64,000 nt of DNA. It comes from an uncultured Candidatus Peribacteria bacterium (GTDB taxonomy: Bacteria; Patescibacteriota; Gracilibacteria; UBA1369; 2-02-FULL-48-14). This document shows, in pieces, positions 19,598 to 43,918 of this stretch (positions are counted from its first letter, which is position 1; each line of letters starts with the position of its first letter). The stretch spans positions 43,513 through 107,512 of the forward strand of contig CAYHGP010000001.1 of assembly GCA_964356195.1 (NCBI GenBank). The letters are read 5' to 3'. A program made the translations under genes and the position numbers. The notes under the pieces were generated by a model. That model did no database searches. It saw nothing but the letters and a program-made list of their open reading frames with translations, and was not told the DNA's origin.

Positions 19598-19602
19598 GGG
19601 TT

Positions 19603-20571: not shown

Positions 20572-21272
20572 AGAGAGGAGAGATTACGAAGGACGAGGAA
20601 GGTGGTCACGTTGCCTTCCGGAAGATCTTGGACTCCATGCCACAGAGTTTCGAGGCCGAAGAGTTCTTTGCACCATGTCGGGCCGAGGATCGCCGTGTGA
20701 GCCAGAGGTTTAAGCAGAGCACTTTCCGGGTCTTCGAGTTCGTAGCTTGGGGTATTGGCAAGTTTTCTTAAGTCCTGAGCGGCCTTACCGGTGTCGGAGT
20801 AGGGAATGTCTTCAAAAGTTCGACGCACAATCCTTGGAATTCCTTTTCGACATTGTTCCACGGCCATGGAATAGGCGGCAAGGCGAGTCACCTCTTCGGG
20901 CTTTACTCCGGGGAGTGCGTGAATGGAAAATTCAATGGGGAGAGGGATAGGGACTCCGATGACCTTGTCTTTGTGGAGTTGGATAAATGTAGTCACCCAA
21001 TCTTTCAAAGGAGTGCCTTCGGGTGGAAGAGGGCAGCCCACCGCCATGAATCCTTTTTTTGAGCTGGGGACGGGGCCTCCCAAAGTGGGATTGAACACAG
21101 GAATTACCATGTGTGAGAATTCACGATTCCAAAATCTTTTAATGGCTAAAGGTGGCTCTAAAGATTCAACTGCAGGAAGACCCGCGAGATCTTTGTTTTG
21201 GGCTTGAGCCAGGTCGACGGCCTTCCAGGAGAAAGAGCCATAGTTTCCGCCGTATAAAATGCCTGGCTTCAT
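20568..21272 (-). CDS. pheA: Prephenate dehydratase (PDT domain only, no ACT regulatory domain)
   Basis: ILYGGNYGSFSWKA (compare the IAYxGxxGxxS block), VIPVFNPTLGGPV (compare VP-x-EN-S-x-x-G), NVTTFLVL (compare N-x-TRF-x-VL). At 234 aa it is too short to carry an ACT domain. Confidence 0.7.
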   Translation of the reverse strand: MKPGILYGGNYGSFSWKAVDLAQAQNKDLAGLPAVESLEPPLAIKRFWNREFSHMVIPVFNPTLGGPVPSSKKGFMAVGCPLPPEGTPLKDWVTTFIQLHKDKVIGVPIPLPIEFSIHALPGVKPEEVTRLAAYSMAVEQCRKGIPRIVRRTFEDIPYSDTGKAAQDLRKLANTPSYELEDPESALLKPLAHTAILGPTWCKELFGLETLWHGVQDLPEGNVTTFLVLRNLSSL

Positions 21273-21275
21273 GAG

Positions 21276-22328: not shown

Positions 22329-23368
22329 TTGGAAAGGGAGTTTTTCATCTCAAGAAGTAAAGCCTCGGTGTCTTCCCAGCTGATACAGGGATCGGTTACG
22401 GAAAGGCCGCAAAGGTTGATGGTTTCGGGAGTATGATCCTCCAGTTTTTGATTCCCCGGAAGCAAGAAACTTTCGAGCATAAAGCCTTTCACAAAATGAT
22501 TCAGCTCGGGGTAGAGCGCAAGCGTGGAAAGGACCTCGCGCACCACATGAATTTGCTGGAGTGGATTTTTCACCCCGTTGAGTTTGCAGTTGTCGTGGCT
22601 GGCATCAATTACAATGGAAGGATTTTTTACGTGAGCTTTTTCTAAAAATTCCTTGGCTTTGTATAAATCTTCAACGTGGTAATTGGGGTCTGTCATTCCT
22701 CCGCGAAGTACGAGGTGAGCGTAAGGATTTCCTTGGGTTTTCACTTGCATCCCGTCGAAAACGGCGGTGTGTCCGTGTTGCGCCGCGAGGACGCTGTTCA
22801 CGCCAATTTCAATATGTCCGCTGGTGGGATTTTTCATCCCCACGGGGCATTCCACTGCGGAGGCAAAAATGCGGTGTTCTTGATCCTCGGTACTGCGCGC
22901 GCCAATAGCGAGCCAAGAAATGAGTTCGATGAAGCCTTTGGCATTGCCCGTGAACACGGCTTCGTCCGCGATTGGGAGACCGAGTTCAATCACCTCCACC
23001 ATGAGGCGGCGCGCGTAGTAGGCACCTGCTTCGATGTCCGGAGCTTCGAAAGGATTCGGTTGATTCACCGGTCCGAGCCAGCCCTTTGTGGTGCGCGGTT
23101 TTTGGATGTAAAGGCGCATCACAATCTTGAGCTTGTCTTTCACTTTTTCGTTGAGTTCGACGAGTTTTTTTGCATAGCCCACGACTGCTTCGTGAGGCCA
23201 AGCTGAACAAGGACCCACCACCACTAACTTGCGGGAATCTTCACCCGCGAGAATGGCTTGAATTTCTTTGCGATCCTGCGCGATGCGCCCAAAGGCTTCA
23301 TCGGAAAGAGGGATGGCCTGAATGATGTCTTCCGCCCGCGGCAATTTTTTTTGGACCGAGTAACGCAT
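22325..23368 (-). CDS. aroG: 3-deoxy-7-phosphoheptulonate (DAHP) synthase, class I
   Basis: VVVGPCS, KPRTTKGWLG, SWLAIGARSTE, IDASHDN: class I DAHPS signatures. Confidence 0.9.
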   Translation of the reverse strand: MRYSVQKKLPRAEDIIQAIPLSDEAFGRIAQDRKEIQAILAGEDSRKLVVVGPCSAWPHEAVVGYAKKLVELNEKVKDKLKIVMRLYIQKPRTTKGWLGPVNQPNPFEAPDIEAGAYYARRLMVEVIELGLPIADEAVFTGNAKGFIELISWLAIGARSTEDQEHRIFASAVECPVGMKNPTSGHIEIGVNSVLAAQHGHTAVFDGMQVKTQGNPYAHLVLRGGMTDPNYHVEDLYKAKEFLEKAHVKNPSIVIDASHDNCKLNGVKNPLQQIHVVREVLSTLALYPELNHFVKGFMLESFLLPGNQKLEDHTPETINLCGLSVTDPCISWEDTEALLLEMKNSLSK

Positions 23369-23377
23369 AGGTAAAAA

Positions 23378-24148
23378 TTAAGAGTTTAAAACAAAAGTTT
23401 CCCAAAGGCGAATTTGCTCCAAAGCCTGCGCCTTGAACATGACGAGCCCCGAGCGCGTCTCCACACCGGCGGCCTTGGCTTCGCGAAGCAGGCGCGTTTC
23501 TTCTGGATTGTACACAAGGTCGAACACGGTTTGGCCAGCTCTCAAGAAAGAAGCGTCCAATGGCGTTTCATCTTCCTTGGGAGCGAGTCCCACCGGGGTG
23601 GCATTGATGATGACGTCAAATTGTTCGGTGCTTAAATCGGCTTCGTTAATAGCGCGGCCTCCGAACTTGGTCACCAATTCTTCTGCCCGGTCGCGGTTTC
23701 GATTCAAACAGAAAAGCTCGGCACCTTCGTCCCGTACAAAAGCGGCGGCCGGTTTTGCAGCGCCACCTGCGCCCAAGAGCAAAACTTTTTTGCCATTTAA
23801 AGGGATGCCCGCAAGTGCCTTTGAAATTCCGAAGTAATCAGTATTGTAGCCCAGCAATTTTCCGTTTTTTTGGAGGACGGTGTTCACACTTTGAAGGCGT
23901 TCCGCCAGCGGATCGATTTCATCCAAAAAAGGCAAAATGATTTCTTTAAAGGGAAGGGTGACTGCGGTGAGGCCAATGTTCAAAGCACGCACTCCTTGAA
24001 TTAACGCCGACAGGTCCTCGTTTTCAAAGGCGAGCATGATCGCGTCATGACCCCGTTTGACGTATTCCTCTCTATGAAAGAAAGGACTGAGGCTGTGAGC
24101 CAAAGGGAATCCAATGACTGCGTTGAGTTTTGTTCGAGCAGTGATCAT
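23378..24148 (-). CDS. aroE: Shikimate 5-dehydrogenase
   Basis: GFPLAHSLSP, NTDYFG, LLGAGGAAK. Confidence 0.92.
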   Translation of the reverse strand: MITARTKLNAVIGFPLAHSLSPFFHREEYVKRGHDAIMLAFENEDLSALIQGVRALNIGLTAVTLPFKEIILPFLDEIDPLAERLQSVNTVLQKNGKLLGYNTDYFGISKALAGIPLNGKKVLLLGAGGAAKPAAAFVRDEGAELFCLNRNRDRAEELVTKFGGRAINEADLSTEQFDVIINATPVGLAPKEDETPLDASFLRAGQTVFDLVYNPEETRLLREAKAAGVETRSGLVMFKAQALEQIRLWETFVLNS

Positions 24149-24582
24149 AAATTGGTAACTAAGAAAGTGAGAGCTTCTTCATAAGACTTCAGTTGCTTGC
24201 CGTGAAAACTTTTTAAGCAAGCCGCTTCGGTCACGGAAATAGCGCGCCAAGGTTCTCGATTTTTAATGTCGGAAAGGTGAACTTCAACGCAAGGCAGGCC
24301 GCAGTCCACAAGGCCGTCGTGGAGGGCATAGCTGCTGTGGGTGAGGGCGCCGGGATTGATTAAAATTCCAACCGCTTCCGTGGATTTTTCTTGGATCCAG
24401 TCGATGAGAGCGCCTTCGTGATTCGATTGAAAACACTCGAGTTCGTGGCCTTGGTGTTCGGCGAGTTCCCGCATATTTTCTTCGAGTTCTGGAAGCGTCA
24501 TCGTCCCATAATGTGCAGGGTCGCGCTGCCCGAGACGATTCAAATTCGGCCCGTGGATGAGAAGGATTTTAGTCATGAGCAA
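24145..24582 (-). CDS. aroQ: Type II 3-dehydroquinate dehydratase
   Basis: ILLIHGPNLNRLGQRDPAHYG, INPGALTHSSYAL, VEVHLSDI. Confidence 0.93.
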   Translation of the reverse strand: MLMTKILLIHGPNLNRLGQRDPAHYGTMTLPELEENMRELAEHQGHELECFQSNHEGALIDWIQEKSTEAVGILINPGALTHSSYALHDGLVDCGLPCVEVHLSDIKNREPWRAISVTEAACLKSFHGKQLKSYEEALTFLVTNL

Positions 24583-25105
24583 GATTTAAACGAGTAAGAA
24601 CTTCTTCGGCTAAAGAATCAATAGTGCCTTCATTGTTAACACTGATCCCGGCCAACTCTTCAAAGACCGGCATCCGCTGTTCCCAGAGCTCCTGAAACTG
24701 GTCGAAAGCATCTTTTTCTTGAGAGAAAAAAGCCGGTTTTCCATTGATCATGATGCGTTCAAAAACAATGCTTCGTGGCGCCGTTACGTGAACAATTTGT
24801 TGTCCTTTGAGTAGGGCTTGATTGCGTTTCATGAGAGGAGTGCCGCCGCCCAGGGCTAAAATCAGCGGGGTGTTTTCGGTAAGAATTTCTTTGAGAGCAT
24901 CGCTTTCCAAGGCGCGGAAAAATTCTTCGCCGTGGTGCTGTAAAATTTCACGGCACGTCTGTTCTTTGCCGCATTGCGTTGTGTGCAAACGAATAATTTC
25001 TGAGTCTAAGTCGACAAAGGGCCGATTGAGTCGCAGGGACAGCCTTTCCCCGAGTAGTGTTTTGCCAGCGTGTTTGAATCCGATAATGATTAGATGTGAA
25101 GTCAT
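24569..25105 (-). CDS. aroK: Shikimate kinase
   Basis: Degenerate P-loop GFKHAGKT, FVDLD, LGGG. Length 178 aa. Confidence 0.85.
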   Translation of the reverse strand: MTSHLIIIGFKHAGKTLLGERLSLRLNRPFVDLDSEIIRLHTTQCGKEQTCREILQHHGEEFFRALESDALKEILTENTPLILALGGGTPLMKRNQALLKGQQIVHVTAPRSIVFERIMINGKPAFFSQEKDAFDQFQELWEQRMPVFEELAGISVNNEGTIDSLAEEVLTRLNLAHD

Positions 25106-26382
25106 GGTTTAGTTGTGAGTTGAAGTAAATGGTCCTCGAACAGGCAATAACTTTTCCCGAGGGCTTCTGCAGTATCAATAGTGGTTTCGTTTTTTGCCAG
25201 GAGTCCTGCCAAGGCCAGCGCCATAACGGTTCGATGATCGTTAAAACCACGTACTTTTGCTCCATGCAGTTGTGATGGGTGAACCACGAGTCCATCCGGC
25301 AACTCTTCGATATTTGCTCCCATGGCCCGTAAGCCTTCCGTCATAGAATGCAGTCGGTCGGTTTCTTTTACGCGAGCTTGGGGAACATTCAAAATGCGTG
25401 TGATTCCCTTGGCCTGCGTTCCAAGTACCGCAAGCGTCGGTACTAAATCCGGGACGTCATTCGCGTCGATGTCGATTCCCGTGAGAGGGGACTTGTGAAC
25501 ACGAATAAATTCTTTGGAAACGTCCACTTTTGCACTCATTGCTTCCAAAATGGAGAGCAAGCGGCGGTCGCCTTGAAGATCGTTTGGATCCAAGCCTTCT
25601 AGCTTCACGTCGCCAGTGAATAGAGCCCCCGCCGCCAAAAAAGTTGAAGCGGAAGAGTAGTCTCCGGGGATTTTGTAATCGATGGGTGAGTAGTGTTGGC
25701 CCGCCGGTAAATGGAAACGATCCATGTTGCCTTCTAGCACATGGCTAAATTGGATGCCTTGCGAACGGAGCCATTCCAAAGTGAGTTCCATGTAAGGGCG
25801 TTCGTTGAGATTTTCCACTTGCAGATCCAAGTCCTGCTCGGCGTAGATGCCGGACAGTAAAAGGGCGGAAATGAATTGAGACGTAAGACCGTTGACGCGG
25901 GCTCTGCCGCCCGTGAGAGGACCTTTTATTGTGATGGGCCAAGAAGCCGATTCCACGTGGCAGCCAAGGTCGGAAAGATTATTCAGCAAGTCCTGAAGCG
26001 GGCGGGTTTTCATTTGTTCACCTGTGTTGATTTGCATGGGGCGGGCGCCTTTTGTGAGCGCCAAAATGGGAAGGACGAAGCGTGTGGTGATGCCGGAATT
26101 TGCGGTGAAGAGGCTGTCTTTTATGGGGTTCAAGGGAACGCCCCGGCTTTCGATTTGCAGACAATCTTCATGACAAGTTGCAGGTTTGATTTGCGCGCCT
26201 AAATTTCGGCATACCTCGATGGCCGTCGAAACATCTTCCGAGTCAGGAAGAAAATGCAAAGTGGAGGTGCCCTTCGCCATTGTTGCAAGAAGCAGCGCCC
26301 TGATGCTCTGGGATTTGGATCCCGGAATGCGCAGGGTGCCGTTCAGTGTGGTGTTGGGAAAAACGTGTAGGTCCATAAACAA
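25102..26382 (-). CDS. aroA: 3-phosphoshikimate 1-carboxyvinyltransferase (EPSP synthase)
   Basis: IPGSKSQSIRALLLA, NSGITTRF, DHRTVMALALAGL. Confidence 0.94.
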   Translation of the reverse strand: MFMDLHVFPNTTLNGTLRIPGSKSQSIRALLLATMAKGTSTLHFLPDSEDVSTAIEVCRNLGAQIKPATCHEDCLQIESRGVPLNPIKDSLFTANSGITTRFVLPILALTKGARPMQINTGEQMKTRPLQDLLNNLSDLGCHVESASWPITIKGPLTGGRARVNGLTSQFISALLLSGIYAEQDLDLQVENLNERPYMELTLEWLRSQGIQFSHVLEGNMDRFHLPAGQHYSPIDYKIPGDYSSASTFLAAGALFTGDVKLEGLDPNDLQGDRRLLSILEAMSAKVDVSKEFIRVHKSPLTGIDIDANDVPDLVPTLAVLGTQAKGITRILNVPQARVKETDRLHSMTEGLRAMGANIEELPDGLVVHPSQLHGAKVRGFNDHRTVMALALAGLLAKNETTIDTAEALGKSYCLFEDHLLQLTTKP

Positions 26383-28114: not shown

Positions 28115-29857
28115 GTGTCTACTTCTTTGAGTCCATTTCCGGAGGGGAGCGTCCATGAGGAGGAGCTTGATGATGTGGAACTTCTTCGTCACGTTAATCG
28201 AGGAGATCCGACTGGGAAAGAACGATTGGAAGCGCTCCTTCCTGAGCTGACACCGGATGAAATTGCCTTGCGGTGTGATGAGCTTGGGTTTTTACGTTAC
28301 CAAGGTGATCAAGACCCCAATTCTCTCTATGAGCGGTTTTGGTTTTTGCGTCCAGAGGATTTTCATCGTTTGGATGTCGATGCTATGGATCTCGGAGATT
28401 TTTTTGAGGAAACCTATTACAAGCCAAGTGTTGCCGCCATACGCATGGTGCGTGCTGTCGTTGCATTGGACGTCAATACCGTGTTGGAAGAAAAACCACC
28501 CCTCGTCACTCATGAGGACTATTTACGTTACTTTGAGACCTTTCATTTAGACGTGCTCAGGGAGTTGATACGTAATTTGCATGAAATAGAGGGGAGTCAG
28601 GGGTGCGATGGTCCTTGCCGCGCTATTTGTGGAGCAGGTGCTAAGAGAAGGGTGACAGGAGGGGATATGCCCTTTGAGACGATGCAGTGGCTTTCTCAAC
28701 ACTTTGGAGAAGAACTTTGTGAAGCAAATCCTGTCCTCTATTCCGCGAGTGATCTCGCGGACTACGGGTACAATAGTAAAAATGGGGCTGATGTCATTGA
28801 ATTATTTGAAAAAACTACCGATAGGTATCCTTACGTCTCAACGGCCTATCGTCTCGACAAAAAAGCGATAGACTTTCTTTTTGACTTAGTCGTTCGTCGC
28901 GGACGACGCGTTGATCGTATCTCTCGTCTTGTTACGGGGAAAAAGGGAGAAGATTTAGAGGTCTTGCTCGATAAACTGAGGCAGCGAGCAGCCGAAGAAG
29001 GGAATGTTTTAGATGACGAAGCTATTGGGAGTATTTCTCGTGCCTTTTTGCAAGGAGATAAGGGTGGAATGAATACGATGATGGGCAATGCCGTTCGGCC
29101 TAGTACACCAGAAAGTACTATGACGAAGGAGCACGTTGCGTGTTCTCACGGGGTTGTCCTGAGGGCAGGGAAGGGCTTTTTTGGTTTGGTTGTTCGTCCG
29201 GCTTCCAAGATTTTTCCCGATGGCAGGGCAATGTTTCCAATTCGTCCTGACGCAAGTGGGCAGGTTCGTTTTCCGCAGCTTCTTCATACGGATCTCACTC
29301 TTGTCCCCTTCTCTGGAGTACGAAAGGTAGTGTTGGGGCCAAAATGGACCATTATGGACAATGAATCCGGTGGAATTTCGGAAAAAGAAACAAGAAGCTC
29401 GCAAGAACAAGCCTTGATAGATGTGAGCCTCTATAAGCAACGTTATCTTACGCTCGAAAGTTTCTTTCTTACCGTTGACTCACAAACAGGAAGGGCCGTT
29501 CGTTTATCGGAAGTCCTCAGGAGGGGTTTGTCCGGACGAGAAAATATACCGCCGGAAGACCGCAGGGAAACTCTGACGAGAGTCAGAAACGGGATAGCTT
29601 TTATTAAGCGTTGCCTTCATTATAGTCGAGAGGGGGCTCAGGAGCTCTATGAGCGATACGCTGACAACAAGAACGTGACTTTGGAAGTTGCTCAATACTA
29701 TGCGGCCACTTTGAATGAAGTGTTCGACGAGCTTGAGTCCCTTTATAGCTTGTTAGGGGCTTTAAGTGGGGCTGACGGAGTGGATGAAGTGGCGAGTTTG
29801 CAAGAAGAACTCCTACAAGTATTAGGATCCTTGCAAGAAGAGAAGACAACGCTGTAA
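28115..29857 (+). CDS. Hypothetical protein (580 aa) with a Cx3Cx3C cysteine triad
   Basis: Long ORF with a GTG start 49 nt after the ferredoxin stop. CDGPCRAIC at 28604-28630. Family not recognised. Confidence 0.5.
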   Translation: MSTSLSPFPEGSVHEEELDDVELLRHVNRGDPTGKERLEALLPELTPDEIALRCDELGFLRYQGDQDPNSLYERFWFLRPEDFHRLDVDAMDLGDFFEETYYKPSVAAIRMVRAVVALDVNTVLEEKPPLVTHEDYLRYFETFHLDVLRELIRNLHEIEGSQGCDGPCRAICGAGAKRRVTGGDMPFETMQWLSQHFGEELCEANPVLYSASDLADYGYNSKNGADVIELFEKTTDRYPYVSTAYRLDKKAIDFLFDLVVRRGRRVDRISRLVTGKKGEDLEVLLDKLRQRAAEEGNVLDDEAIGSISRAFLQGDKGGMNTMMGNAVRPSTPESTMTKEHVACSHGVVLRAGKGFFGLVVRPASKIFPDGRAMFPIRPDASGQVRFPQLLHTDLTLVPFSGVRKVVLGPKWTIMDNESGGISEKETRSSQEQALIDVSLYKQRYLTLESFFLTVDSQTGRAVRLSEVLRRGLSGRENIPPEDRRETLTRVRNGIAFIKRCLHYSREGAQELYERYADNKNVTLEVAQYYAATLNEVFDELESLYSLLGALSGADGVDEVASLQEELLQVLGSLQEEKTTL

Positions 29858-31352: not shown

Positions 31353-32246
31353 TCAAGGCTCCAGTACGAACCCCACGTTCATAATTGGGTGCCCAAGCGC
31401 TTTCCAGAAGCCAAGCCGAACGGTTTCTTTCAAATGGAGCCCGGCTTGGTCGAATTGAGTTTTCCAGTCGGCAACCGTTCGAAAAGTAAATGGCATGGCC
31501 ATGTGAGGTAAGCCCTTGACGGCTCCATTAACGAGATAATCGTAGGCAAGCAAAACGGCGCGTTGAGAAACTTGTGGAAGAGCCAAAAAAGAGCGAGTAC
31601 TTTCTAAATCCTCGACGCTTGGGCTGGGGTCGACTTCATTTAGGTCGTCTCCGTAGACGTCTTCAAGAATCAGCACACGCTCCGCCCGGTTGGCCGCTTG
31701 TTTGAGCAATCCCACGTGGGCGTCTGCGGGGGCGTGATGCAAAACCTGGATGAAACTTAGGTTCGACACTGACTCGTCACCTGGAATGGTCTCCGCGTTA
31801 GGCATGGTTGTAAAAGGTAGGTGAAGGGCTTCCGGCTTACGATAATCCAAGACATCCGTCAGCTGAACCTGGTAGCCTCTTCGAGCAAGGTCTACGCCCA
31901 AGTCTCCGGGTCCACACCCCACGTCCATAATGCTTTCTCCTACCATTCTTGCCTGACAAAAATCGGCAATTGCCGGGTTCTTTACGTCTCTTTTATGGAT
32001 CCCATAGGCTCTAGAAAATAGGCCTTGTCCGGAAGAAAAAACCGTCCGATGAACTTCCAGGGCTCTTTCATGGATCTGAACTGCCTCCTCAAACGGTCCA
32101 CGAAAAGCTTCCAGTAGTTTATTGACCAGGGGCGTTGTCTCTAGCTCCGGCGCAATTCGTCCGTAATGATTCAAGAAATGGCTTCGTAAAAATGCCATCG
32201 CTTCTTGGTCCCCTAATGCTTCTACAACTTGTTCTTCCGGGTTCAT
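31353..32246 (-). CDS. Class I SAM-dependent methyltransferase
   Basis: Motif I IMDVGCGPGDLGVDLA and an acidic post-I residue (LTDV). Substrate unknown. Confidence 0.7.
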   Translation of the reverse strand: MNPEEQVVEALGDQEAMAFLRSHFLNHYGRIAPELETTPLVNKLLEAFRGPFEEAVQIHERALEVHRTVFSSGQGLFSRAYGIHKRDVKNPAIADFCQARMVGESIMDVGCGPGDLGVDLARRGYQVQLTDVLDYRKPEALHLPFTTMPNAETIPGDESVSNLSFIQVLHHAPADAHVGLLKQAANRAERVLILEDVYGDDLNEVDPSPSVEDLESTRSFLALPQVSQRAVLLAYDYLVNGAVKGLPHMAMPFTFRTVADWKTQFDQAGLHLKETVRLGFWKALGHPIMNVGFVLEP

Positions 32247-32383: not shown

Positions 32384-33838
32384 ATGTATAAAAACTTATT
32401 TGTAGCTCTGCTGGTACTTCTTGTACCTGCATCAATAGCCTTAGCGTCCATCGCTGATATCGAAGTGTCCGTGCTTGACGCAGACGCTGTTGAATCATCG
32501 GATGAAGGGGAAGACTCTGATGATTCAGGTAACGATGAAGGTGAGGATGAAGATGAAGATACTGACTCAGACAGCGAAGATGGCGACGATTCCGATGAGG
32601 ATGAAGAGGAGGATTCTGATATGGAAAATGCAGCTGATAAGATTGAAGACGCTGGGGAAGAAATTGCCGATGCAGAGGAAACCATTGTTGAGAAAGAAGC
32701 TGAAGGTAAGGATGTCTCAGATGCACTTCTTAGACTTGAAGGTGCACGTGAACTTCTAGCTGATGCACAAACTGAATTTGATGCGGGAAATTATGAAGAA
32801 GCAGAATATCTTGCTAAAGAAGCAAAACATGAAGCGATGTACGCCAAAGGTAAAGATATCCACTCAAACAGTGAAGAATCTGAACTTGGTGAAGACTTTG
32901 GAGAATGTATTGCCGAAGCAGTGCTCTCAGATGAAAGTGATGCTGAAGAGTTTGATGAATGTTTCGAAGACTTTGAAGAAGAAATAGCAGATTTTGTTGA
33001 AGAATTATTGTCTGAAGAGGACCAAGCGGCAAACACTGAACTTGACGAAGCCCTTACTTCCCTTGCAGAGACCGTTGAATCTGAACTAAGCCAGCTACTT
33101 CTTGCTCTCGCTGAATTCAATGTCAGCGGAGTAGATGAAGATAAAGTCATTGCGGATATTGAAAGTATCGTTGAATCAGACGATGATCTTGAAACTCAAG
33201 TTTCAGAACTAGAGGATAAGATGGATGAAATCAAAGATGAGTCTACTGCAAACAAGTTCGAAGATGATGTAATCCCATTTAGAGATACTGATGATGAAGA
33301 ATGGTTCTTCAACTTTGTTGATCAGATGGATTCAGAGGCTTGTATCTCAGGATTCAAGGACGAAGCAGGAAATGAACTGGGCGAATTCCGCCCTTCAAAT
33401 GAAGTGCTGTTTGGAGAAAGCATGAAGTTTGTACTGCAATGTATTCTCGATGAAGATCCTGAAGATATTGCTGACGGTGATTTCTGGGCTCGAGGATATG
33501 CGCTTAAGTTTCAAGAAGATTTCTCTGATCTACTTAGCGCAGACCTTCTAGGTCGAGTCGAAAATGCTCTCGTAGATGATGCGGAATACACTTCAGAAGT
33601 TACTCGCGGTGAACTTATTCAACTGATCGTTGATGCACTTGATTTGGATGTTTCAGAAGCAAGCGAAGCTCCTTTCAGTGATGTTGCTCTAGATCATGCA
33701 AATGTAAATGCGATCAACTATGCTCTCAGTAAGGGCGTAATCTCAGGTGATGAGGAAACAAGTACTTTCCGTCCTGATGAAGTTCCAAACCGTGCAGAAG
33801 TTGCAAAGATCATTATCCTTGCTAAACAGTTGTTCTAA
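32384..33838 (+). CDS. Secreted hyper-acidic protein with C-terminal SLH-like domains
   Basis: Signal peptide MYKNLFVALLVLLVPASIALA. D/E/S run in aa 31-79. C-terminal SLH-like blocks (FRDTDDEEWFFNFV...ISGFKD...FRP; FSDVALDHANVNAINYALSKGVISGD...FRPDEVPNRAEVAKII). Confidence 0.65.
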   Translation: MYKNLFVALLVLLVPASIALASIADIEVSVLDADAVESSDEGEDSDDSGNDEGEDEDEDTDSDSEDGDDSDEDEEEDSDMENAADKIEDAGEEIADAEETIVEKEAEGKDVSDALLRLEGARELLADAQTEFDAGNYEEAEYLAKEAKHEAMYAKGKDIHSNSEESELGEDFGECIAEAVLSDESDAEEFDECFEDFEEEIADFVEELLSEEDQAANTELDEALTSLAETVESELSQLLLALAEFNVSGVDEDKVIADIESIVESDDDLETQVSELEDKMDEIKDESTANKFEDDVIPFRDTDDEEWFFNFVDQMDSEACISGFKDEAGNELGEFRPSNEVLFGESMKFVLQCILDEDPEDIADGDFWARGYALKFQEDFSDLLSADLLGRVENALVDDAEYTSEVTRGELIQLIVDALDLDVSEASEAPFSDVALDHANVNAINYALSKGVISGDEETSTFRPDEVPNRAEVAKIIILAKQLF

Positions 33839-34012: not shown

Positions 34013-36379
34013 ATGAAAATTGCATTGATTTGTGGGGGGCCATCGTTGGAGCGAGGGATTTCGCTCAACTCGGCGCGTAGTGTTTTAGACCATTTGGAAG
34101 GCGATGGGATTGAAGTGGTGCCGATTTATTTTGATCATAAAAAGCGTCCTTATCATATTTTGAGCTCGCAACTTTATTCCAATACGCCTTCCGATTTTGA
34201 TTTTAAGCTTCAAGAAACGGCTAAGGCTCTGAGTCCAACCGGACTTAAGAAGTTGCTGAAAAGTGTGGACCTGGCCTTTCCCGTGATGCACGGACCTTTT
34301 GGGGAAGACGGAGGAATTCAGCGTATTCTTGAGCGCGCCAAGGTGCCTTACATCGGCCCTGGGATGGAGGCTTGTAAACGTTGTTTCGATAAATTTACAG
34401 CCAATGAATTCATCCGAAAGAATGGATTTTTCACGCTCCCCTCCATCGTTTTGAAAATTCACCAAGGGGGGCACAAGTCAACGATTGCTGCGTTTTTCAA
34501 GAAACATAAAATCAAGAGAGCCATTGTGAAGCCTGCAACGGGGGGATCCAGCATTGGAGTTTCTTCAGTGACTACTGCCACCGAAGCCCTTGAAAAAGTA
34601 AAAAAACTTTTTGCCAAAAGGATAGATACCCGTGTGGTGGTGGAGCCCTTTTGTGAAGGGATTGAGTTTACCGTCATCCTTTTGCAAAATCGTTTTGGAA
34701 TGCCGGTGGCTATTCTCCCGACGGAAATTGAGACGGACTACACGGAGCATCAAATCTTTGATTATCGGAAAAAATATTTGGCGAGCCGAGCGGTTCGTTA
34801 CCACTGTCCTCCTCGTTTTGATAACGCCACCATTGAACGCATCCAGGTTCAAGCTGAGCAACTGTTTACGCTGTTTGGGATGCGAGATTTTACGCGGTTT
34901 GACGGCTGGCTGCTTCCCGATGGAAACATTTGGTTTTCAGATTTCAATCCCATTAGTGGCATGGAGCAGAATAGCTTCCTCTTCCAACAAACGGCGCGCA
35001 TTGGGTTCAGTCATCGCGACCTTCTTCGTTTTGTGGTGAAGAACGCGGCAGCGCGGTATGGGCTGAAAGTTCCTGAAATCACGAAAGAAATCGAGGAGAA
35101 GAAAAAGCCGGTGAACGTTTTGTTTGGAGGTAGCACTTCCGAGAGGCAGGTTTCGCTTATGAGTGGAACCAATGCTTGGCTCAAGCTTCGTCGCTCAAAA
35201 AAGTACGCTCCCAAGCCCTTTCTTTTGGACTTGAATGGGAAGGTGTGGCCGCTTCCCTATGCACTAACTTTGAATCATACGGTGGAGGAAGTTTTGGAAA
35301 ACTGCGAAGGGGCAGAAGCCGGTGAAAAGCGCTTGCAGTTTTTAGAGGAAAAAATACGATTGCGGTTGTCGGCTGGAGAGGAAGAGCTGAGCGAATCTTT
35401 TTTCATCCCGAAGCCGTTGAGCTTGGAGACTTTCATTCGTGACAGTAAGTTTGTGCTTTTGGGTTTACATGGAGGCATTGGCGAAGACGGGACTTTGCAA
35501 GCAATGCTGCAAAAACAAGGAGTGAAATTCAACGGTCCCGGGGCAGAGGCGTCTCGCATTTGTATGGATAAGTTTGAGACTGGAAAACGTGTGCAAGGTT
35601 TGGAAAAATGGGGAGTGTACACGGCACCCAAAAAGTCCGTATTGCTCACGGCATTTAAAAACTTCAAGCCCGTGGATTTTGATAATTACTTCAAGAATTT
35701 GCAGGCCGAGCTGGATTCGCGAACTTTTATTGTGAAGCCGCAGGACGAGGGCTGCTCCTCCGGAATTGTTCGCCTGTTTAACGCTCGGGATTTTGCGAAG
35801 TACATTGCTTTGGCGCTCAAGGGAGTCGCCTTCATCCCTAAAGAAACTTTTAAAAACCAGACGCAAATGGTGGATATGCCTTTGGTCCCCATGAAGCATC
35901 TTTTGATTGAGCAGTTTATTGAAACGGACGCGGTTTGCGTGAAAGGAAATCAGCTCAAGTGGCGACGAAAAAAAGGATGGGTGGAAGTGACGGTGGGTGT
36001 TTTAGAAGAAAATGGAAAGTGCCATGCGCTGAGTCCCAGTCTTACCGTTTCCGAAGGCGAAGTGCTTTCTGTGGAAGAAAAATTTCAAGGGGGAACCGGG
36101 GTGAATATGACTCCGCCGCCGGAAAAATTTGTGAAACCGACCGTGCTTGCGCGGGCCAAAAAAGCGGTTGAGAAAATTGCGGAAACGCTTGGGATTGAAG
36201 GGTATTGCCGTATGGATGCCTTCCTGAACATCGACAACGGGGATATCATTTTAATCGAAGTGAATACTTTGCCGGCGCTCACGCCGTCCACGGTTCTTTT
36301 CCATCAAGCGCTTGCTGAAAAGACGCCGATTTACCCCAAGCGGCTCTTGGAAATGCTGATCGAGAATAAAGGCTATTAA
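34013..36379 (+). CDS. ddl: Tandem fusion of two D-alanine--D-alanine ligase-like ATP-grasp modules
   Basis: Module 1 (aa 1-~350): IALICGGPSLERGISLNSA, HGPFGEDGGIQ, VKPATGGSSIG, RFDGWL...SDFNPISG. Module 2 (aa ~365-788): VNVLFGGSTSERQVSLMSG, HGGIGEDGTLQ, VKPQDEGCSSGI, CRMDAFL...LIEVNTLPALT. Confidence 0.85.
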   Translation: MKIALICGGPSLERGISLNSARSVLDHLEGDGIEVVPIYFDHKKRPYHILSSQLYSNTPSDFDFKLQETAKALSPTGLKKLLKSVDLAFPVMHGPFGEDGGIQRILERAKVPYIGPGMEACKRCFDKFTANEFIRKNGFFTLPSIVLKIHQGGHKSTIAAFFKKHKIKRAIVKPATGGSSIGVSSVTTATEALEKVKKLFAKRIDTRVVVEPFCEGIEFTVILLQNRFGMPVAILPTEIETDYTEHQIFDYRKKYLASRAVRYHCPPRFDNATIERIQVQAEQLFTLFGMRDFTRFDGWLLPDGNIWFSDFNPISGMEQNSFLFQQTARIGFSHRDLLRFVVKNAAARYGLKVPEITKEIEEKKKPVNVLFGGSTSERQVSLMSGTNAWLKLRRSKKYAPKPFLLDLNGKVWPLPYALTLNHTVEEVLENCEGAEAGEKRLQFLEEKIRLRLSAGEEELSESFFIPKPLSLETFIRDSKFVLLGLHGGIGEDGTLQAMLQKQGVKFNGPGAEASRICMDKFETGKRVQGLEKWGVYTAPKKSVLLTAFKNFKPVDFDNYFKNLQAELDSRTFIVKPQDEGCSSGIVRLFNARDFAKYIALALKGVAFIPKETFKNQTQMVDMPLVPMKHLLIEQFIETDAVCVKGNQLKWRRKKGWVEVTVGVLEENGKCHALSPSLTVSEGEVLSVEEKFQGGTGVNMTPPPEKFVKPTVLARAKKAVEKIAETLGIEGYCRMDAFLNIDNGDIILIEVNTLPALTPSTVLFHQALAEKTPIYPKRLLEMLIENKGY

Positions 36380-36391
36380 CAAGTCTGTGTT

Positions 36392-36793
36392 ATGGAATTC
36401 CCTGTCCCCATTTCAGAAAAATATTTGGAAAAGGCTCTGGCCTTACATATTTTTCCTGAGGATATTGAAGAGAACTTTGTTCGTGGAACCGGGGCGGGCG
36501 GGCAAAAAATCAATAAGACATCGAGTTGTGTGTGGCTGAAGCATTTGCCCACCGGAACGGAGGTGAAATGTCAGGAATATCGCCAGCGGGAAGTGAATCG
36601 TAGTGAGGCCTACAAGCTCTTGATTCTAAAAATTGAAGACCGTATTCTTGGCAAAAAATCGGAGCGTGCGCAAAAAGCTTTTAAGCTGAGAAAGCAGAAA
36701 ATGCGCCGTTCACGGAAGGCAAAAGAAAAAACTTTGCAGCACAAAGCGCACCGATCGGTTCTCAAAGAAAATCGGCAAAAAGTTAATTTTTAA
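36392..36793 (+). CDS. arfB: Alternative ribosome rescue factor ArfB (GGQ-domain peptidyl-tRNA hydrolase)
   Basis: 133 aa. GTGAGGQKINKTSSCVWLKHLPTG (RF-1 GGQ domain), followed by a Lys/Arg-rich C-terminal tail. Confidence 0.85.
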   Translation: MEFPVPISEKYLEKALALHIFPEDIEENFVRGTGAGGQKINKTSSCVWLKHLPTGTEVKCQEYRQREVNRSEAYKLLILKIEDRILGKKSERAQKAFKLRKQKMRRSRKAKEKTLQHKAHRSVLKENRQKVNF

Positions 36794-36794
36794 A

Positions 36795-37499
36795 ATGTAT
36801 ACAAAATCGTTTTATTTGACCGGGCAGCAGGGCAACAATGCCTTTGCCTATTCTGCGAGGGGGCCTGAGCCCAGGCTCTATGTGCCTTCCATCCGCGATG
36901 GAACTTTGGAGGACGTGAGGGTCGGGATGGAGGCGGTTTTTGAAGATTTTGATTACGAGGGTGTTTTCCAATCGTGCAAGGGGCTGGAGAATTTTATTCG
37001 TGCGGAGTGGCGGGGGATTCCTGTGATCGTGGTGGATAATCATAATCATGTGTTTTACTTTTGGTACGAGGCCTTGGCAAAAGGACAGCTCCAGCGTGGA
37101 GCGACGCTGATCCACATTGATGCCCACAAAGATGCGCGTATTCCGGAGAAGGCTTTTTCCGGTGGGCCTTTGGAGGAAGTTTTTCGTTATACCAATGAGG
37201 AGCTGAATGTTGGAAATTATATTGTGCCTGCTCAGAAAGAAGGCCTGGTGGGAGAGGTGCAGTTTGTGACCAGCGGAGAGGCGCTTGAGGATCGACGTTT
37301 CGTGGAGACTAAAAATAAAATCCTCAACATTGACCTCGATTTTTTTGCGCCCGAAATGGCTTACATCGATTTTGAAAAAACCAAGCGGTTCATTCTTGAA
37401 CAAGCAAAAACAGCGAGCCTCATTACGGTGTCCACCAGTCCGTTTTTTATAGATCAAGAGTTGGCGATCCGCAGGCTTCTTGACATATTTGGCAAATAG
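36795..37499 (+). CDS. UPF0489-like protein (arginase/deacetylase-fold candidate)
   Basis: VVDNHNHVFYFW, IHIDAHKD and NIDLDFF resemble the conserved His/Asp blocks I associate with the UPF0489 family. This assignment is from memory only. Confidence 0.4.
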   Translation: MYTKSFYLTGQQGNNAFAYSARGPEPRLYVPSIRDGTLEDVRVGMEAVFEDFDYEGVFQSCKGLENFIRAEWRGIPVIVVDNHNHVFYFWYEALAKGQLQRGATLIHIDAHKDARIPEKAFSGGPLEEVFRYTNEELNVGNYIVPAQKEGLVGEVQFVTSGEALEDRRFVETKNKILNIDLDFFAPEMAYIDFEKTKRFILEQAKTASLITVSTSPFFIDQELAIRRLLDIFGK

Positions 37500-40622: not shown

Positions 40623-41163
40623 AAAAATTGAAGAAGAGAACGTCGCCAAAGACGTTTGGATTGTGGGTCCTGAAACGGGCCATATGTTGCATTGGCTGGT
40701 TCGTGTTTTAGAACCGGAGACCGTGCTTGAAATTGGAACCTCCGTGGGTTACAGCGCACTTTGGATCGCTTCTGCTTTACATCACAATGGGAAGGGAAAG
40801 CTCTGGACGGTGGAGTCGCATGATGAACGTTTTGAGCGCGCAAAAGAAAATATCGCCGAGTCCGGTCTTGGGGATCGTATTGTTCAAGTGAAAGGACACG
40901 CCCCTGAAATTTTCGAGAGCAACTCAGGGATTCCGGAAATCATCGATGTTGTTTTTTTTGATGCCACCAAGCAAGAGCATCAGTCCTACTTCGACGCTAT
41001 TTTTCCACGGATGCGTTCCGGCGGCATGATTTTGGTGGACAATGTAAAGTCGCATCGCTTCGGACCGATGCAGGAATTTATTGAAAATGCTCATGCCAAC
41101 AAAGGCTTGAAGGTGGTCGAAATTCCGGTTGGAGACGGGCTGCTTATAGCACGCGTTGTTTAG
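40603..41163 (+). CDS. Class I SAM-dependent O-methyltransferase, family 3 (caffeoyl-CoA OMT / YrrM-TrmR-like)
   Basis: LEIGTSVGYSALWIA, VFFDATKQEHQSYFD, GGMILVDNV. ATG at 40603 (alternative 40579) overlaps the glutaredoxin gene end. Confidence 0.8.
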   Translation: MYKKILKKIEEENVAKDVWIVGPETGHMLHWLVRVLEPETVLEIGTSVGYSALWIASALHHNGKGKLWTVESHDERFERAKENIAESGLGDRIVQVKGHAPEIFESNSGIPEIIDVVFFDATKQEHQSYFDAIFPRMRSGGMILVDNVKSHRFGPMQEFIENAHANKGLKVVEIPVGDGLLIARVV

Positions 41164-43918
41164 GCAGAATGGCTTCGTCCGTTGGAGTGCCGTTGGAGTC
41201 TTCTGAGGGGGTGTCTTCCGGAGGGGGAGTTTCTTCGGAGTCTGTAGAGCTATCGCCAATGCGGACCTGAATAGTGCTTTCTGAAGAGTAGCCATAAATG
41301 TCGATTATTTTTGCAGTCACTTCTAAAATGGTTCCCTCGCGGGCCGTTACCGGGATGGCAATTCGGCCATCGTAAGGAGAGGAAGCAGAGTGATATTTCA
41401 CGGTTCCATTGACGAGGTATTGCACTTCTTTAATGCCGTTTCCGGTGTTCAGAATTTCCACTTCTACCTCGTGTGTGCGTTCTTCGCTGGAAATGGATGA
41501 AAGACTCGTGGGACTTGTTATTGTGAGTTCCGGAATGTGGGAGGCGGTTTCGGCGTTGTGAATATCGTCGGCAGATTCGGTGGGGGGAACGCTTACCTCT
41601 TCTCCTTGCGTAGCGACCCACGCATCAATGTCGCTTTGCCAGTTTGTCCATTCCTCTTTATAAACACGGTAGGTTCGCTCCTCTACGCTGTCTGCGGGGG
41701 AGTAGGGAGTGGCGAGACGACCTGAGATAGTTTCCACTTGTAAGACTTGGTAGGCGTCATCTTGTTCGGTGGGCACGGCGAAGTCGGCAAAAATTTCTGT
41801 GCGAATCATGTCTGAAGGAGTGTATTGATTTGGCAATTTACCGCTCGCCTTGCTAACGGCCACTTCAGTAATTCCTTCGGGACGCACCCATTCCGTGGGC
41901 TCGAGGCGATTCAAGACTTTGGTCATGTAGTTTTTCCAAATAGGAGCAATGGTGTAATAAGCCTCTCCGTTGGAAAACATGGGAGTTCCGTCGGCATTTC
42001 CAGACCAACCAATGGTGACCAGCGTGGGAGTGTAGGCCACTAGCCATCCGTCCTGAGGATATCCGTCATCGTCGGTGGAGGTTCCGGTTTTTGCAGCGTT
42101 GTCGAGGGCCTCCAAGTACATGGCACTTCCAAGGTTCACTGAAGAGTCGGAAAGAATGTCGTTGATGATGTAGGCCACTTGAGGGTCGAGGACTTGGATT
42201 TTTTCAACTTTCTTTTCGTCCCACTGTTCGAGAGGGACTCCGTCGGCGGTTTCTACTTTGAGGATGGCCGTGGGCTCGACTTTGTAACCTCCGTTGGCAA
42301 ACACTCCGTAAGCCTCAGCGAATTGCAAAGGCGTCACTTCTGCAGCTCCCAGGGCCAAAGGATATCCATAGCTGTGAGTCTCATCGAGGGTCAGACCAAA
42401 CTTATTCACATAAGGTACAATGGCCTGCTCTTCTCCCGCGAGAAAGTAGGACTTGGCGGCGGGAATGTTGAGCGAGTTCCCCAAGGCTTGACGCATGGCA
42501 AGAGGGCCGGCGAAAGTTCCCGAAAAGTTTTTTGGAGTGTCGGACCCGAAGTGAGTGAGAACGTCGTAGAAAACGGTAGCTGCCGTGTATTGATTGAGCA
42601 ACGCCAAAGAGTAGACAAAGGGCTTGAAGGAGGACCCCGGCTGACGGTAGCTCGTAATCATATTCACTTGCCCGTCGATTTCTTCGTCGAAGTAGTCGGC
42701 GGAACCCACCATCGCTAAAATTTGTCCTGTTTGTGGCTGGATGGTGATGAGGGCCGCGTTGTTTGCTCCGTAGTTTGTGGCGTTGGCTTCAATTTGTTCG
42801 GAGATGGCTTCTTCCGCCGCCTTTTGGAAATCGGGGTCGAGCGTGGTGTATACTTTCAGACCTCCTTGTTCCACGATTTCACTGCCGTATTTTTCTTCCA
42901 GTTGTTGCTTCACCCAGAGTACGAAATGGGCGGCTGAAATGGTTTCTTTATAGTCCGTGAAGGCGAGCGTTTGGATTTCGATCAGCGCGGCATCTTCTTC
43001 GCTTTGAGTGATCATCCCGAGTTCCACCATACGGTCGAGGACAAGGTCGCTGCGGCCTTTAATATAGAAGGTGCTGGCGTCTGGGAGAGTGAAAGTGGTT
43101 CCCAAAAGTCCGCGCGTGAATTCATCGACACTTAAATCTTCCTCGCCGGTGATGGCGCGGCCCTGTAAATTTTCATCGGTGAGTTCAAAAGTGAGAACGC
43201 TGTATTTGTAGTTTCCATAAGGAGAGTAGCGCGTGGGGGCGCGAGGGATGCTGGCCAGAATTGCCGATTCCGCGAGAGTGAGGTCTTTGGCGTCTACATT
43301 GAAGTAGCGATCGGCCGCGAGTTGAATTCCGTAGGAGTTGTTTCCGTAGGGGATTTCATTGAGATACATCAACAAAATATCGTCTTTGCTGAATTTGAGT
43401 TCAAGAACCAAGGAGGTCACAATTTCGCGATACTTACGGATGTAGCTTCGCTCGGGGGTCAACAAGCTATTTTTTACCAACTGTTGTGTGATGGTGGACC
43501 CTCCACGAGGGGCTCCAATTCCAAATTGTGAGAGCAAGGCCTTGGCTAAAGCGGGAATATCGATTCCCATGTGGCTGTAAAAATTATCATCCTCAATAGC
43601 GATGGTGGCATCGATGAGTGAAGGCGAAATTTGGTCGAGAGAATCCAAAGACTCACGGTTTTCTTCTCCGTGGATGGTGTAGAGGAGGTTCCCCTCTCGG
43701 TCCATGATCAGTGTCGAATCTTTAGCGGCAACATTGCCGGGATTGAAGGTGAACAAAATCCAAAGTGCGTAGAAAACAGTCAGAACAAATATCGTTCCGA
43801 GTACGGCTAAAATACCAATGAGGCCATAGCGCAGGAAACGGTTTTTCTTGCTCATTGAGGGATGAGGCTTGAGGCGGTCCCAACCTTTCCGAATGGCGGT
43901 TTTGGTCCAATTTTTCAT
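41144..43918 (-). CDS. Class A penicillin-binding protein (glycosyltransferase GT51 plus transpeptidase)
   Basis: N-terminal TM anchor. GT51 motifs EDDNFYSHMGID, GGSTITQQL and RKYRE. Transpeptidase motifs SSFKP, SLN and KTGT. There is a ~200-aa C-terminal extension ending in a Ser/Thr/Pro/Glu-rich tail. Confidence 0.92.
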   Translation of the reverse strand: MKNWTKTAIRKGWDRLKPHPSMSKKNRFLRYGLIGILAVLGTIFVLTVFYALWILFTFNPGNVAAKDSTLIMDREGNLLYTIHGEENRESLDSLDQISPSLIDATIAIEDDNFYSHMGIDIPALAKALLSQFGIGAPRGGSTITQQLVKNSLLTPERSYIRKYREIVTSLVLELKFSKDDILLMYLNEIPYGNNSYGIQLAADRYFNVDAKDLTLAESAILASIPRAPTRYSPYGNYKYSVLTFELTDENLQGRAITGEEDLSVDEFTRGLLGTTFTLPDASTFYIKGRSDLVLDRMVELGMITQSEEDAALIEIQTLAFTDYKETISAAHFVLWVKQQLEEKYGSEIVEQGGLKVYTTLDPDFQKAAEEAISEQIEANATNYGANNAALITIQPQTGQILAMVGSADYFDEEIDGQVNMITSYRQPGSSFKPFVYSLALLNQYTAATVFYDVLTHFGSDTPKNFSGTFAGPLAMRQALGNSLNIPAAKSYFLAGEEQAIVPYVNKFGLTLDETHSYGYPLALGAAEVTPLQFAEAYGVFANGGYKVEPTAILKVETADGVPLEQWDEKKVEKIQVLDPQVAYIINDILSDSSVNLGSAMYLEALDNAAKTGTSTDDDGYPQDGWLVAYTPTLVTIGWSGNADGTPMFSNGEAYYTIAPIWKNYMTKVLNRLEPTEWVRPEGITEVAVSKASGKLPNQYTPSDMIRTEIFADFAVPTEQDDAYQVLQVETISGRLATPYSPADSVEERTYRVYKEEWTNWQSDIDAWVATQGEEVSVPPTESADDIHNAETASHIPELTITSPTSLSSISSEERTHEVEVEILNTGNGIKEVQYLVNGTVKYHSASSPYDGRIAIPVTAREGTILEVTAKIIDIYGYSSESTIQVRIGDSSTDSEETPPPEDTPSEDSNGTPTDEAILPKQRVL

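Follow-up and report, generated by a model that had tools for sequence, protein, structure and literature searches.

The locus described here raises a simple question: why would a bacterium of the candidate phyla radiation (CPR) carry two modules of Ddl, the D-Ala-D-Ala ligase, in one polypeptide, and what does each of them do? Single-module Ddl enzymes have 300–385 residues and act as homodimers. In the 64,000-nucleotide stretch of DNA that we analysed (the window; contig CAYHGP010000001.1 of an uncultured Candidatus Peribacteria bacterium), an open reading frame (ORF) at 34013–36379 had been read in a first-pass annotation, made from the letters alone, as two Ddl modules in tandem. We will show that the two modules are genuine, that the protein belongs, as a bacterial representative, to the tandem DDL family known from plants, and that its two putative active sites are both well kept and consistently different from each other. 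The gene probably encodes the D-Ala-D-Ala ligase of the CPR peptidoglycan pathway, as a single chain with two non-identical modules.

The layout of the gene is given below. Equivalent residues are numbered according to E. coli DdlB, whose sequence was checked to be identical to PDB 2dln/1iov.

34013–36379 (+): whole tandem-Ddl gene, ATG start, 788 residues plus stop; supported by the ORF list, by the Pfam Ddl N and C domains each occurring twice, and by at least 120 full-length homologs
34013–35059 (+): module 1, residues 1–349; Tyr-type Ddl module, the better conserved half
35060–35107 (+): inter-module linker, residues 350–365, GLKVPEITKEIEEKKK; variable, rich in Lys and Glu
35108–36376 (+): module 2, residues 366–788; divergent Cys/Phe-type Ddl module with insertions
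34772–34777 (+): module 1 omega-loop Lys254-Tyr255, equivalent to DdlB K215-Y216 by alignment to DdlB
34940–34948 (+): module 1 metal site Asp310-Phe-Asn312, in which Asp replaces DdlB E270
35216–35419 (+): module 2 insertion 1, residues 402–469, in the N-terminal domain, largely helical
35753–35755 (+): module 2 Cys581, equivalent to DdlB Ser150, a member of the E15-S150-Y216 triad
35813–35980 (+): module 2 insertions 2 and 3, residues 601–656, in the central ATP-grasp domain, beta-rich
36080–36085 (+): module 2 omega-loop Lys690-Phe691, equivalent to DdlB K215-Y216, within the motif EEKFQGGTG
36290–36295 (+): module 2 Thr760-Val761, equivalent to DdlB S281-L282, at the second-substrate carboxylate site

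The presence of two complete modules is confirmed by the domain searches. Dala_Dala_lig_N (PF01820) and Dala_Dala_lig_C (PF07478) are each found twice by Pfam in the 788-residue protein, and when the halves are scanned separately all four scores exceed the gathering cut-offs (34.6 for N and 24 for C): half 1 (residues 1–361) gives 90 and 95 bits, and half 2 (residues 362–788) gives 63.7 and 54.9 bits. Against the NCBIfam model TIGR01205 the whole protein scores 323.4 bits (E 1e-96), which is the sum of the two modules. This E value, together with the fact that both halves are modelled with the Ddl fold (see below), excludes a chance resemblance. The modules are 23% identical to each other, while modules 1 and 2 are 28% and 26% identical to DdlB, respectively, so that they are as distant from each other as each is from the E. 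coli enzyme; the pair may stem from a duplication or from the joining of two older paralogs.

As to the motifs, the first-pass annotation was right about IEVNTLP in module 2 and about SDFNPISG, with Asp for DdlB Glu270, in module 1, while its claim of a full Ddl motif set in both halves stands only in part. HG-x-x-GEDG-x-x-Q is present twice (HGPFGEDGGIQ in module 1, HGGIGEDGTLQ in module 2), and so is R-x-D (RFD and RMD). The P-loop of module 2, on the other hand, reads KPQDEGCSSG, where a Cys, overlooked in that annotation, breaks GSS-x-G, and its first motif reads GGSTSE, with Thr where the pattern GG-x-S-x-E has Ser. The extra segments that had been noticed in module 2 are real relative to DdlB and amount to about 120 inserted residues. 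Insertion 1 is a gap in both DdlB and module 1 and contains helices at 424–432 and 434–452 in the structural model, and insertions 2 and 3 contribute strands at 629–634, 640–644 and 647–651. The junction, estimated at 35080–35120, was placed close to the actual linker, within which residues 355–363 have zero conservation in per-column counts over 120 homologs.

Over the full 788 residues, the AlphaFold2 model, built with 61 homologs, has a mean predicted local distance difference test score (pLDDT) of 88.1 and a predicted template modelling score (pTM) of 0.88. The pLDDT falls below 50 only at 248–252 and 682–695, which are the two omega-loops bearing K-Y and K-F; these loops are mobile in Ddl crystal structures. 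Residues 349–364 have no regular secondary structure. In a Foldseek search of the PDB, the top 50 matches listed are all Ddl, VanA, VanG or LmDdl2 chains covering one module each, with target-normalised template modelling (TM) scores of 0.77–0.89. The scores to the Ddl structures 7u9k, 6u1f and 2dln are 0.84–0.89 (also target-normalised), which gives the three-domain Ddl fold in both halves. So high a pTM in a chain of two modules suggests a confident prediction of how they are placed with respect to each other, and the model fits a fixed intramolecular pair.

It is then necessary to consider whether the fusion could be an assembly or sequencing artefact, in which a missed stop codon or a frameshift has merged two adjacent ordinary ddl genes. 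A search of a 5.8-billion-protein collection gave at least 120 homologs, all of them full length (757–830 residues) and 60–78% identical to the window protein, whose N-terminus, linker and C-terminus all align with them. The homologs that are named carry the labels Peregrinibacteria, Gracilibacteria, Patescibacteria or "D-alanine--D-alanine ligase". We also scanned one genome per GTDB species with peptide patterns specific for module 2, and found a relative of this module encoded in 468 species genomes; the locus counts given here and below refer to the best 80 loci. In 66 of the 80, coming from various studies and assemblers, the gene is one unbroken ORF of 775–844 residues with some 360–420 residues ahead of module 2, another 11 end at contig edges, and 3 are interrupted. 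The same fusion is, moreover, found in cDNA-supported plant genes (PMC9954125). With the tandem form recurring in more than 100 independent assemblies, the artefact is rejected and its probability is negligible, in spite of the rare relatives that do have the modules as separate adjacent ORFs.

Regarding these interrupted loci, L040 has an in-frame TAA at 1355–1357, where the sequence between the modules is rich in A, and in L025 the junction carries a frameshift (2957–3024); in both, the modules are separate adjacent ORFs. In L058, which belongs to the closed genome CP064978.1, a frameshift lies within module 1 (5104–5185). The interruptions are either sequencing errors or natural splits or pseudogenes.

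Most of the best 80 loci belong to Peribacteria, Peregrinibacteria, Gracilibacteria, Paceibacterota and further CPR groups, with some bins labelled Bdellovibrionota, Thiotrichales or Parachlamydiales. The tandem form is the ordinary Ddl in many CPR lineages and common in the window's own, and since it is widespread in Peribacteria and Peregrinibacteria and in much of the CPR, it is no peculiarity of this genome. The survey of homolog lengths called for by the first-pass annotation comes out in favour of a genuine fusion, whereas the rarity that it had implied is not borne out. Its premise that the known fusions join Ddl only to Mur ligases does not hold either, because a Ddl-Ddl tandem, of the same family as the window protein, has already been described for Arabidopsis At3g08840 and Physcomitrella PpDDL, "throughout the whole plant lineage" (PMC9954125). 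A fusion of the other kind is the MurC-Ddl of Chlamydia (NF011171), in which Ddl is likewise joined in one chain to another ATP-dependent ligase of the same pathway. There the partner has the Mur-ligase fold, while here it is a second Ddl; a Mur_ligase domain is absent from the window protein according to Pfam, and NF011171 gives 161 bits, where the cut-off is 1015.

When 1.84 billion cluster representatives were searched exhaustively with module 2 by HMMER, 288 of them came out at E ≤ 1e-30. Among the top 150, nearly all have 750–920 residues, with a match in the C-terminal half and a weaker one in the first half. Most matches of 400–500 residues, which could have been stand-alone module 2 proteins, have their start within module 1 or at a Met in the interior of module 2 and are truncated gene calls. 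P0158 is the only candidate that could be a genuine stand-alone module 2.

Several of the representatives carry further domains. P0192 (1,638 residues) consists of Ddl-Ddl followed by a Mur ligase (M and C domains) and an alanine racemase, P0161 (1,262 residues) of Ddl-Ddl and a Mur ligase, P0264 (1,244 residues) of Ddl-Ddl and a PASTA domain, and P0172 (987 residues) of a GNAT domain and Ddl-Ddl. There is also a distant subclass of 870–920 residues (P0244, P0250, P0252–P0255, P0259, P0262, P0265 and P0270), about 30–33% identical to window module 2, in which module 1 is enlarged to some 450 residues, matches the module 1 profile weakly, and has Leu instead of Phe at position 282 in 2 of the 3 checked. 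These proteins begin straight at the module and are therefore not transit-peptide-bearing plant proteins.

We now consider the relation to the plant enzymes. Profiles of the two modules were built from 120 CPR homologs, and in all 116 two-module representatives, including those from Coffea, Tetraselmis and Myrmecia, the module 1 profile is matched by the first unit and the module 2 profile by the second. For the Coffea eugenioides protein (XP_027176337.1, 956 residues), module 1 gives 382 bits at residues 81–461 and module 2 gives 445 bits at residues 495–949. In a signature of 19 active-site positions, its module 1 agrees with the window at all 19, including Asp270, and its module 2 at 18, the difference being Gly for Ala at 276. 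The signature in plant and window is EHEKKSSEEKYRDDNSGSF for module 1 and EHEKKCSEEKFRDENP(G/A)TV for module 2. The latter is also found in rice, olive, Brassica, Drosera, Mesotaenium and Chara (partially, in a Chara fragment), and Cys150 is present in all plant sequences checked. Window module 2 is about 40% identical to that of seed plants (rice, olive and Brassica; E about 1e-110), 39% to that of Mesotaenium and 36% to the Chara fragment, and insertion 1 is covered by the module 2 profile in the plant proteins. Green-algal relatives appear among the distant representatives, namely a Myrmecia bisecta "D-alanine--D-alanine ligase" (1,876 residues) and a Tetraselmis protein (1,580 residues).

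Plant DDL and the window protein are thus alike in having two Ddl units on a single chain, module 1 before module 2, and in sharing the insertions of module 2. On the basis of the module order, the pocket signatures and the module 2 identity, we place the window protein in the plant-type tandem DDL family, as a bacterial member. There are also differences. The plant proteins have an N-terminal extension of about 80 residues, presumably a transit peptide, and extra loops that bring the length to 1,876 residues in Myrmecia; in Coffea, module 1 starts at residue 81, while the window protein has no such extension and begins with its first beta-strand (MKIALICGG). In plants the gene is nuclear, whereas the window gene is on a CPR bacterial chromosome. 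The plastid-targeting extension and the nuclear location mark the eukaryotic branch and not the enzyme family.

The common order and signatures point to a single fusion that would predate the plant lineage's copy. In a neighbour-joining tree of module 2 rooted on DdlB, a clade of plants and algae falls inside the metagenomic tandem representatives, most of which are unlabelled, and this placement suggests that the fusion arose ahead of the transfer to the green lineage. Plant DDL is thought to have been acquired horizontally from "Chlamydiae/CFB bacteria" (PMC3493653), and the metagenomic tandem set widens the possible donors beyond this 2012 assignment. Eleven loci whose tandem ddl is 51–57% identical to window module 2 (L038, L041, L055, L067, L068, L079, L080, L043, L021, L054 and L060) also bear on that claim, because their bins bear the labels Bdellovibrionota/Bdellovibrionales, Thiotrichales, Parachlamydiales, Bacteroidia, Desulfohalobiaceae and Nitrospiria. 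The non-CPR labels could reflect mis-binning, loose labelling or a real spread past the CPR. For L055, on a 182-kb contig with 41% GC over the 13-kb locus, the adjacent gene is for an Fe/Mn superoxide dismutase and the locus also holds one for an Mrp/NUBPL ATPase, and nothing there is decisive on the phylum.

The next question is whether both modules can be catalytic. The 120 homologs were aligned to DdlB half by half, and a wider sample was taken from 50%-identity-cluster representatives, the most distant of which are some 30% identical to the window protein (116 for module 1 and 133 for module 2). The roles used are those of DdlB: K97, K144, E180, E187 and K215 for ATP, D257, E/D270 and N272 for Mg, E15 for the first D-Ala, and R255 for the transition state. 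Among the 120 homologs, the invariant residues of module 1 are E13, H93, E98, K127, K173, S179, S180, E211, E218, K254, Y255, R295, D297, D310, N312, G316, S321 and F322, and those of module 2 are E377, H486, E491, K520, K575, C581, S582, E633, E658, K690, F691, R733, D735, E749, N751, T760 and V761. Twelve invariant positions are common to the two modules (E15, H63, E68, K97, K144, S151, E180, E187, K215, R255, D257 and N272 in DdlB numbering). The ATP and phosphoryl-transfer residues (K97, K144, E180, E187, K215 and R255) are present in both modules of all 120 homologs and nearly invariant in the cluster representatives. The Mg ligands would be D735, E749 and N751 in module 2, and D297, D310 and N312 in module 1, where the Asp that stands for Glu is still a carboxylate and is invariant.

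These data bear on the possibility that module 2 (or module 1) is a non-catalytic pseudo-enzyme, which would bind ATP or serve a structural purpose in place of the second Ddl subunit, perhaps in a regulatory role. Module 2 is indeed the more divergent one, with a mean pairwise identity within the family of 59%, compared to 72% for module 1, and with lower Pfam and NCBIfam scores, yet it still has 72 invariant columns. Its inserted residues and the loss of the Ser/Tyr triad (see below) would also fit such a role. Pseudo-enzymes, however, normally lose residues of the kind that are nearly invariant here: E15, H63, E68, K97, K144, S151, K215, R255, D257 and N272 are kept in module 2 across the 133 representatives and in plants, and E270 is kept in 132 of the 133. 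The oxyanion position 276 is Ala in the window protein and in 83 of the 120 close homologs, which would speak for such a role, but it is Gly in 85 of the 133 representatives. In Arabidopsis ddl T-DNA insertion lines, transcripts for the C-terminal module alone may sustain function, a suggestion that is unproven (PMC9954125). Because the catalytic residues are invariant, the pseudo-enzyme is the least likely of the functional readings, and we consider it improbable. The first-pass annotation had allowed for one half being a degenerate duplication; instead, the ATP, Mg and catalytic residues are conserved in both, and neither module is degenerate.

While the catalytic residues are common to the two modules, the pockets are not. 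The positions that differ are the following.

DdlB position 150: Ser in module 1, Cys (C581) in module 2
DdlB position 216: Tyr in module 1, Phe (F691) in module 2
DdlB position 270: Asp (invariant) in module 1, Glu in module 2
DdlB position 275: Ser in module 1, Pro in module 2
DdlB position 276: Gly in module 1, Ala or Gly in module 2
DdlB position 281: Ser in module 1, Thr (T760) in module 2
DdlB position 282: Phe in module 1, Val (V761) in module 2

In module 1, Tyr216 and Asp270 are found in all 120 close homologs, and among the representatives with a residue at the column the counts are 111/111 for S150, 116/116 for Y216, 110/112 for D270 and 96/112 for F282. In module 2, Cys150, Phe216, Thr281 and Val282 are each found in 120/120 close homologs, and the representatives give 129/133 for C150, 130/133 for F216, 131/133 for T281, 117/133 for V282 and 132/133 for E270. 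The E15-S150-Y216 hydrogen-bond triad, which closes the omega-loop in dipeptide-type sites, would consequently be intact in module 1 (E13, S179 and Y255), while in module 2 the corresponding residues are E377, C581 and F691, and with Cys and Phe at these places the Ser/Tyr triad would be abolished. The K-F of module 2 is aligned with the K-Y of DdlA (8evx) in the PDB profile alignment. Since the pocket signature of each half is kept from ultra-small groundwater bacteria to coffee and rice, selection appears to maintain two different active sites.

Such a fixed difference makes it natural to ask whether the two modules are two specialised ligases, as the first-pass annotation had offered next to a covalent pseudo-dimer. 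Both of its hypotheses are still in play, and the contrast between Tyr-type and Cys/Phe-type pockets gives the second one a concrete basis. Module 1 would then make D-Ala-D-Ala, and module 2 a depsipeptide such as D-Ala-D-lactate or another D-Ala-D-X, so that the cell, and the plastid in plants, would make two precursor termini. The pocket difference is fixed family-wide (C150/F216/T281/V282 in module 2 versus S150/Y216/S281/F282 in module 1), and the modules, being no nearer to each other than to DdlB, have probably evolved independently for a long time under separate constraints. VanA-type ligases have His at the Y216 position. In the Ddl of lactic acid bacteria (LAB), Phe or Tyr at the 216 position decides between depsipeptide (D-Ala-D-Lac) and dipeptide activity (PMC5996685).

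The comparison with the known ligases of altered specificity is less favourable to two specialised ligases. The Leuconostoc LmDdl2 (1ehi), a Phe-type D-Ala-D-lactate ligase of intrinsically vancomycin-resistant LAB, shares Phe at the 216 position with module 2 and superimposes with a TM score of 0.84, but it gives 43.8 bits against the module 2 profile while DdlA gives 87.7 bits, meaning that its similarity is no greater than that of an ordinary Ddl; it also differs in that module 2 is fused to a Tyr-type module. Module 2 is far under every NCBIfam D-Lac and D-Ser model, with 58 bits for D_ala_D_lac (cut-off 550) and 66 bits for D_ala_D_ser (cut-off 520), and all Van models are far below their cut-offs. 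In the alignment with module 1, the Arg of VanG (4fu0, a D-Ala:D-Ser ligase) falls at DdlB L282, where the window protein has Phe322 in module 1 and Val761 in module 2, so module 2 is not a D-Ser ligase of the known type. Among the 39 window proteins scanned, Pfam found neither a D-lactate dehydrogenase nor a VanX-like dipeptidase. On the favourable side, a Y216F mutant of DdlB has been made and crystallised (PDB 1iow, among the Foldseek matches listed), but the mutant is reported, in work of Park, Lin and Walsh from 1996, to make D-Ala-D-Ala still. Finally, the precursor pentapeptide of moss, with DDL among its enzymes, is reported to be the same as that of typical Gram-negative bacteria (PMC9434261). 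Taken together, two specialised ligases, the main rival of the reading that follows, are a tentative possibility and a doubtful one. The fuller version, in which module 2 has been a Phe/Cys-type ligase for D-Ala-D-lactate or another D-Ala-D-X beside the Tyr-type site since before entry into the green lineage, is rather unlikely.

The simplest reading is a covalent Ddl dimer with both sites working. According to this proposal, the two modules would pack together as the intramolecular equivalent of the Ddl homodimer, which is supported by the short variable linker and the pTM of the whole chain. Both sites would turn over ATP, as judged from their residues, and the enzyme would supply D-Ala-D-Ala to MurF. 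Module 1 would be the canonical site. Module 2, with its Cys150/Phe216/Thr281/Val282 pocket, would be a second site that handles the second substrate differently, in the simplest case giving the same product with other kinetics or regulation.

A number of points weigh against the covalent dimer as just described. The same product from both sites is the weakest step, as module 2 appears to be without the Ser/Tyr triad and has Phe as in the LAB depsipeptide ligases. Module 1 does not look fully canonical either: compared to single-module Ddl enzymes (E. coli DdlB 2dln, S. mutans Ddl 3k3p and DdlA 8evx), with which the window protein shares the three-domain ATP-grasp fold, the Pfam domains and the ATP, Mg and catalytic residues, it keeps the E15-S150-Y216 triad but has Asp for Glu270 and Phe for Leu282. 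The window protein further departs from them in being two diverged copies covalently joined, with the four pocket substitutions and the insertions in module 2. Each half alone misses the TIGR01205 trusted cut-off of 245.65 bits (210.7 for half 1 and 118.3 for half 2), and that model alone would thus call neither of them Ddl. Catalysis by each module is something we infer from its residues. Likewise, the identification of the module interface with the canonical homodimer interface derives from the pTM and would hold within that limit.

The genomic context supports a role in D-Ala supply, through linkage to the alanine racemase gene alr and through the fusions with Mur ligase and alanine racemase mentioned above. 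In 21 of the 80 loci, alanine racemase is encoded no more than 6 kb from the tandem ddl, often directly downstream and starting 14–40 bases past the stop codon (for example L045 1807–2901, L071 7292–8383 and L039 7307–8401), an arrangement that looks like an operon in CPR lineages other than the window's. The 64-kb window contains neither another Ddl-like ORF nor alr or murF, and no single-module ddl occurs within 6 kb of the tandem gene in the 80 loci. In moss, knockout of DDL abolishes D-Ala dimerisation and gives giant chloroplasts (PMC9954125). Other wall functions encoded in the window are PBP1A (41144–43918), an M23 peptidase, a GlmM-like mutase, a flippase-like protein, FemAB and S-layer homology (SLH) domain proteins. 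A link to the FemAB gene, which the first-pass annotation had thought worth considering, finds no support, as this gene (2117–3163) is 31 kb away and a FemAB homolog is within 6 kb of the tandem ddl in none of the 80 loci.

The neighbours conserved in the closest relatives are an ArfB-like RF-1 domain protein, a UPF0489 protein, a Wzy_C protein, Ham1, an O-methyltransferase and PBP1A, which form no obvious operon with ddl. In the window, the RF-1-domain protein (ArfB-like, 133 residues, with the GGQ motif) and, one base on, the UPF0489 protein occupy 36392–37499 (+). In several of the closest loci this pair follows the tandem ddl directly on its 3' side, and in 14–17 related loci it is within 6 kb.

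As already noted, the tandem architecture is known in plants, and the bacterial proteins are public, annotated as Ddl or hypothetical. In the literature searched we found no description of a bacterial or CPR tandem Ddl, on which the Peribacteria genome paper is silent, and no assignment of a role to either half in plants or bacteria. Also not found described there are the extent of the tandem form in the CPR and other bacteria, the module-wise orthology with plants, and the fixed Tyr-type and Cys/Phe-type signatures. For annotation, the implication is that a tandem Ddl should neither be split into two genes nor marked as an error. The bacterial ortholog, having no transit peptide or long loops, would be a convenient, compact model enzyme for the question of the second site and for the one debated in the plant field, whether the C-terminal half alone accounts for the missing phenotype of the Arabidopsis ddl lines. 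If module 2 does have a distinct specificity, CPR bacteria and plant plastids would make two precursor termini from one protein, and this would bear on intrinsic glycopeptide insensitivity and on the retention of DDL in angiosperms that lack MurF.

Some other features of the window deserve mention. The SLH-domain proteins are encoded at 32384–33838 (+) and 61112–63244 (+), and suggest an S-layer anchored on a Gram-positive-type wall. The first of them, whose gene directly precedes the tandem ddl on its upstream side, combines an extremely acidic N-terminal half rich in Asp, Glu and Ser with one C-terminal SLH domain, and the long Ser-rich ORFs on the strand opposite it are an artefact of composition. 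Five long ORFs, at 818–2059 (−), 14240–16021 (−), 28115–29857 (+), 31353–32246 (−) and 51441–54188 (+), encode proteins of 413, 593, 580, 297 and 915 residues, respectively, with no Pfam match at E ≤ 0.001; for the 580- and 297-residue proteins, the 80 related loci also show no homolog close to the tandem ddl.

A compact aromatic amino-acid block extends over 17296–26382, with genes for chorismate synthase, an aminotransferase, chorismate mutase/prephenate dehydrogenase, prephenate dehydratase, DHQ synthase, DAHP synthase, shikimate dehydrogenase, shikimate kinase and EPSP synthase. It stands out because few amino-acid biosynthesis genes are reported in published Peribacteria genomes (PMC4736985). 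Finally, almost all 2-kb bins have a positive GC skew, and the cumulative skew climbs steadily across the whole window (1–64000), which places the window on one replichore, although dnaN is at 9830–10954.

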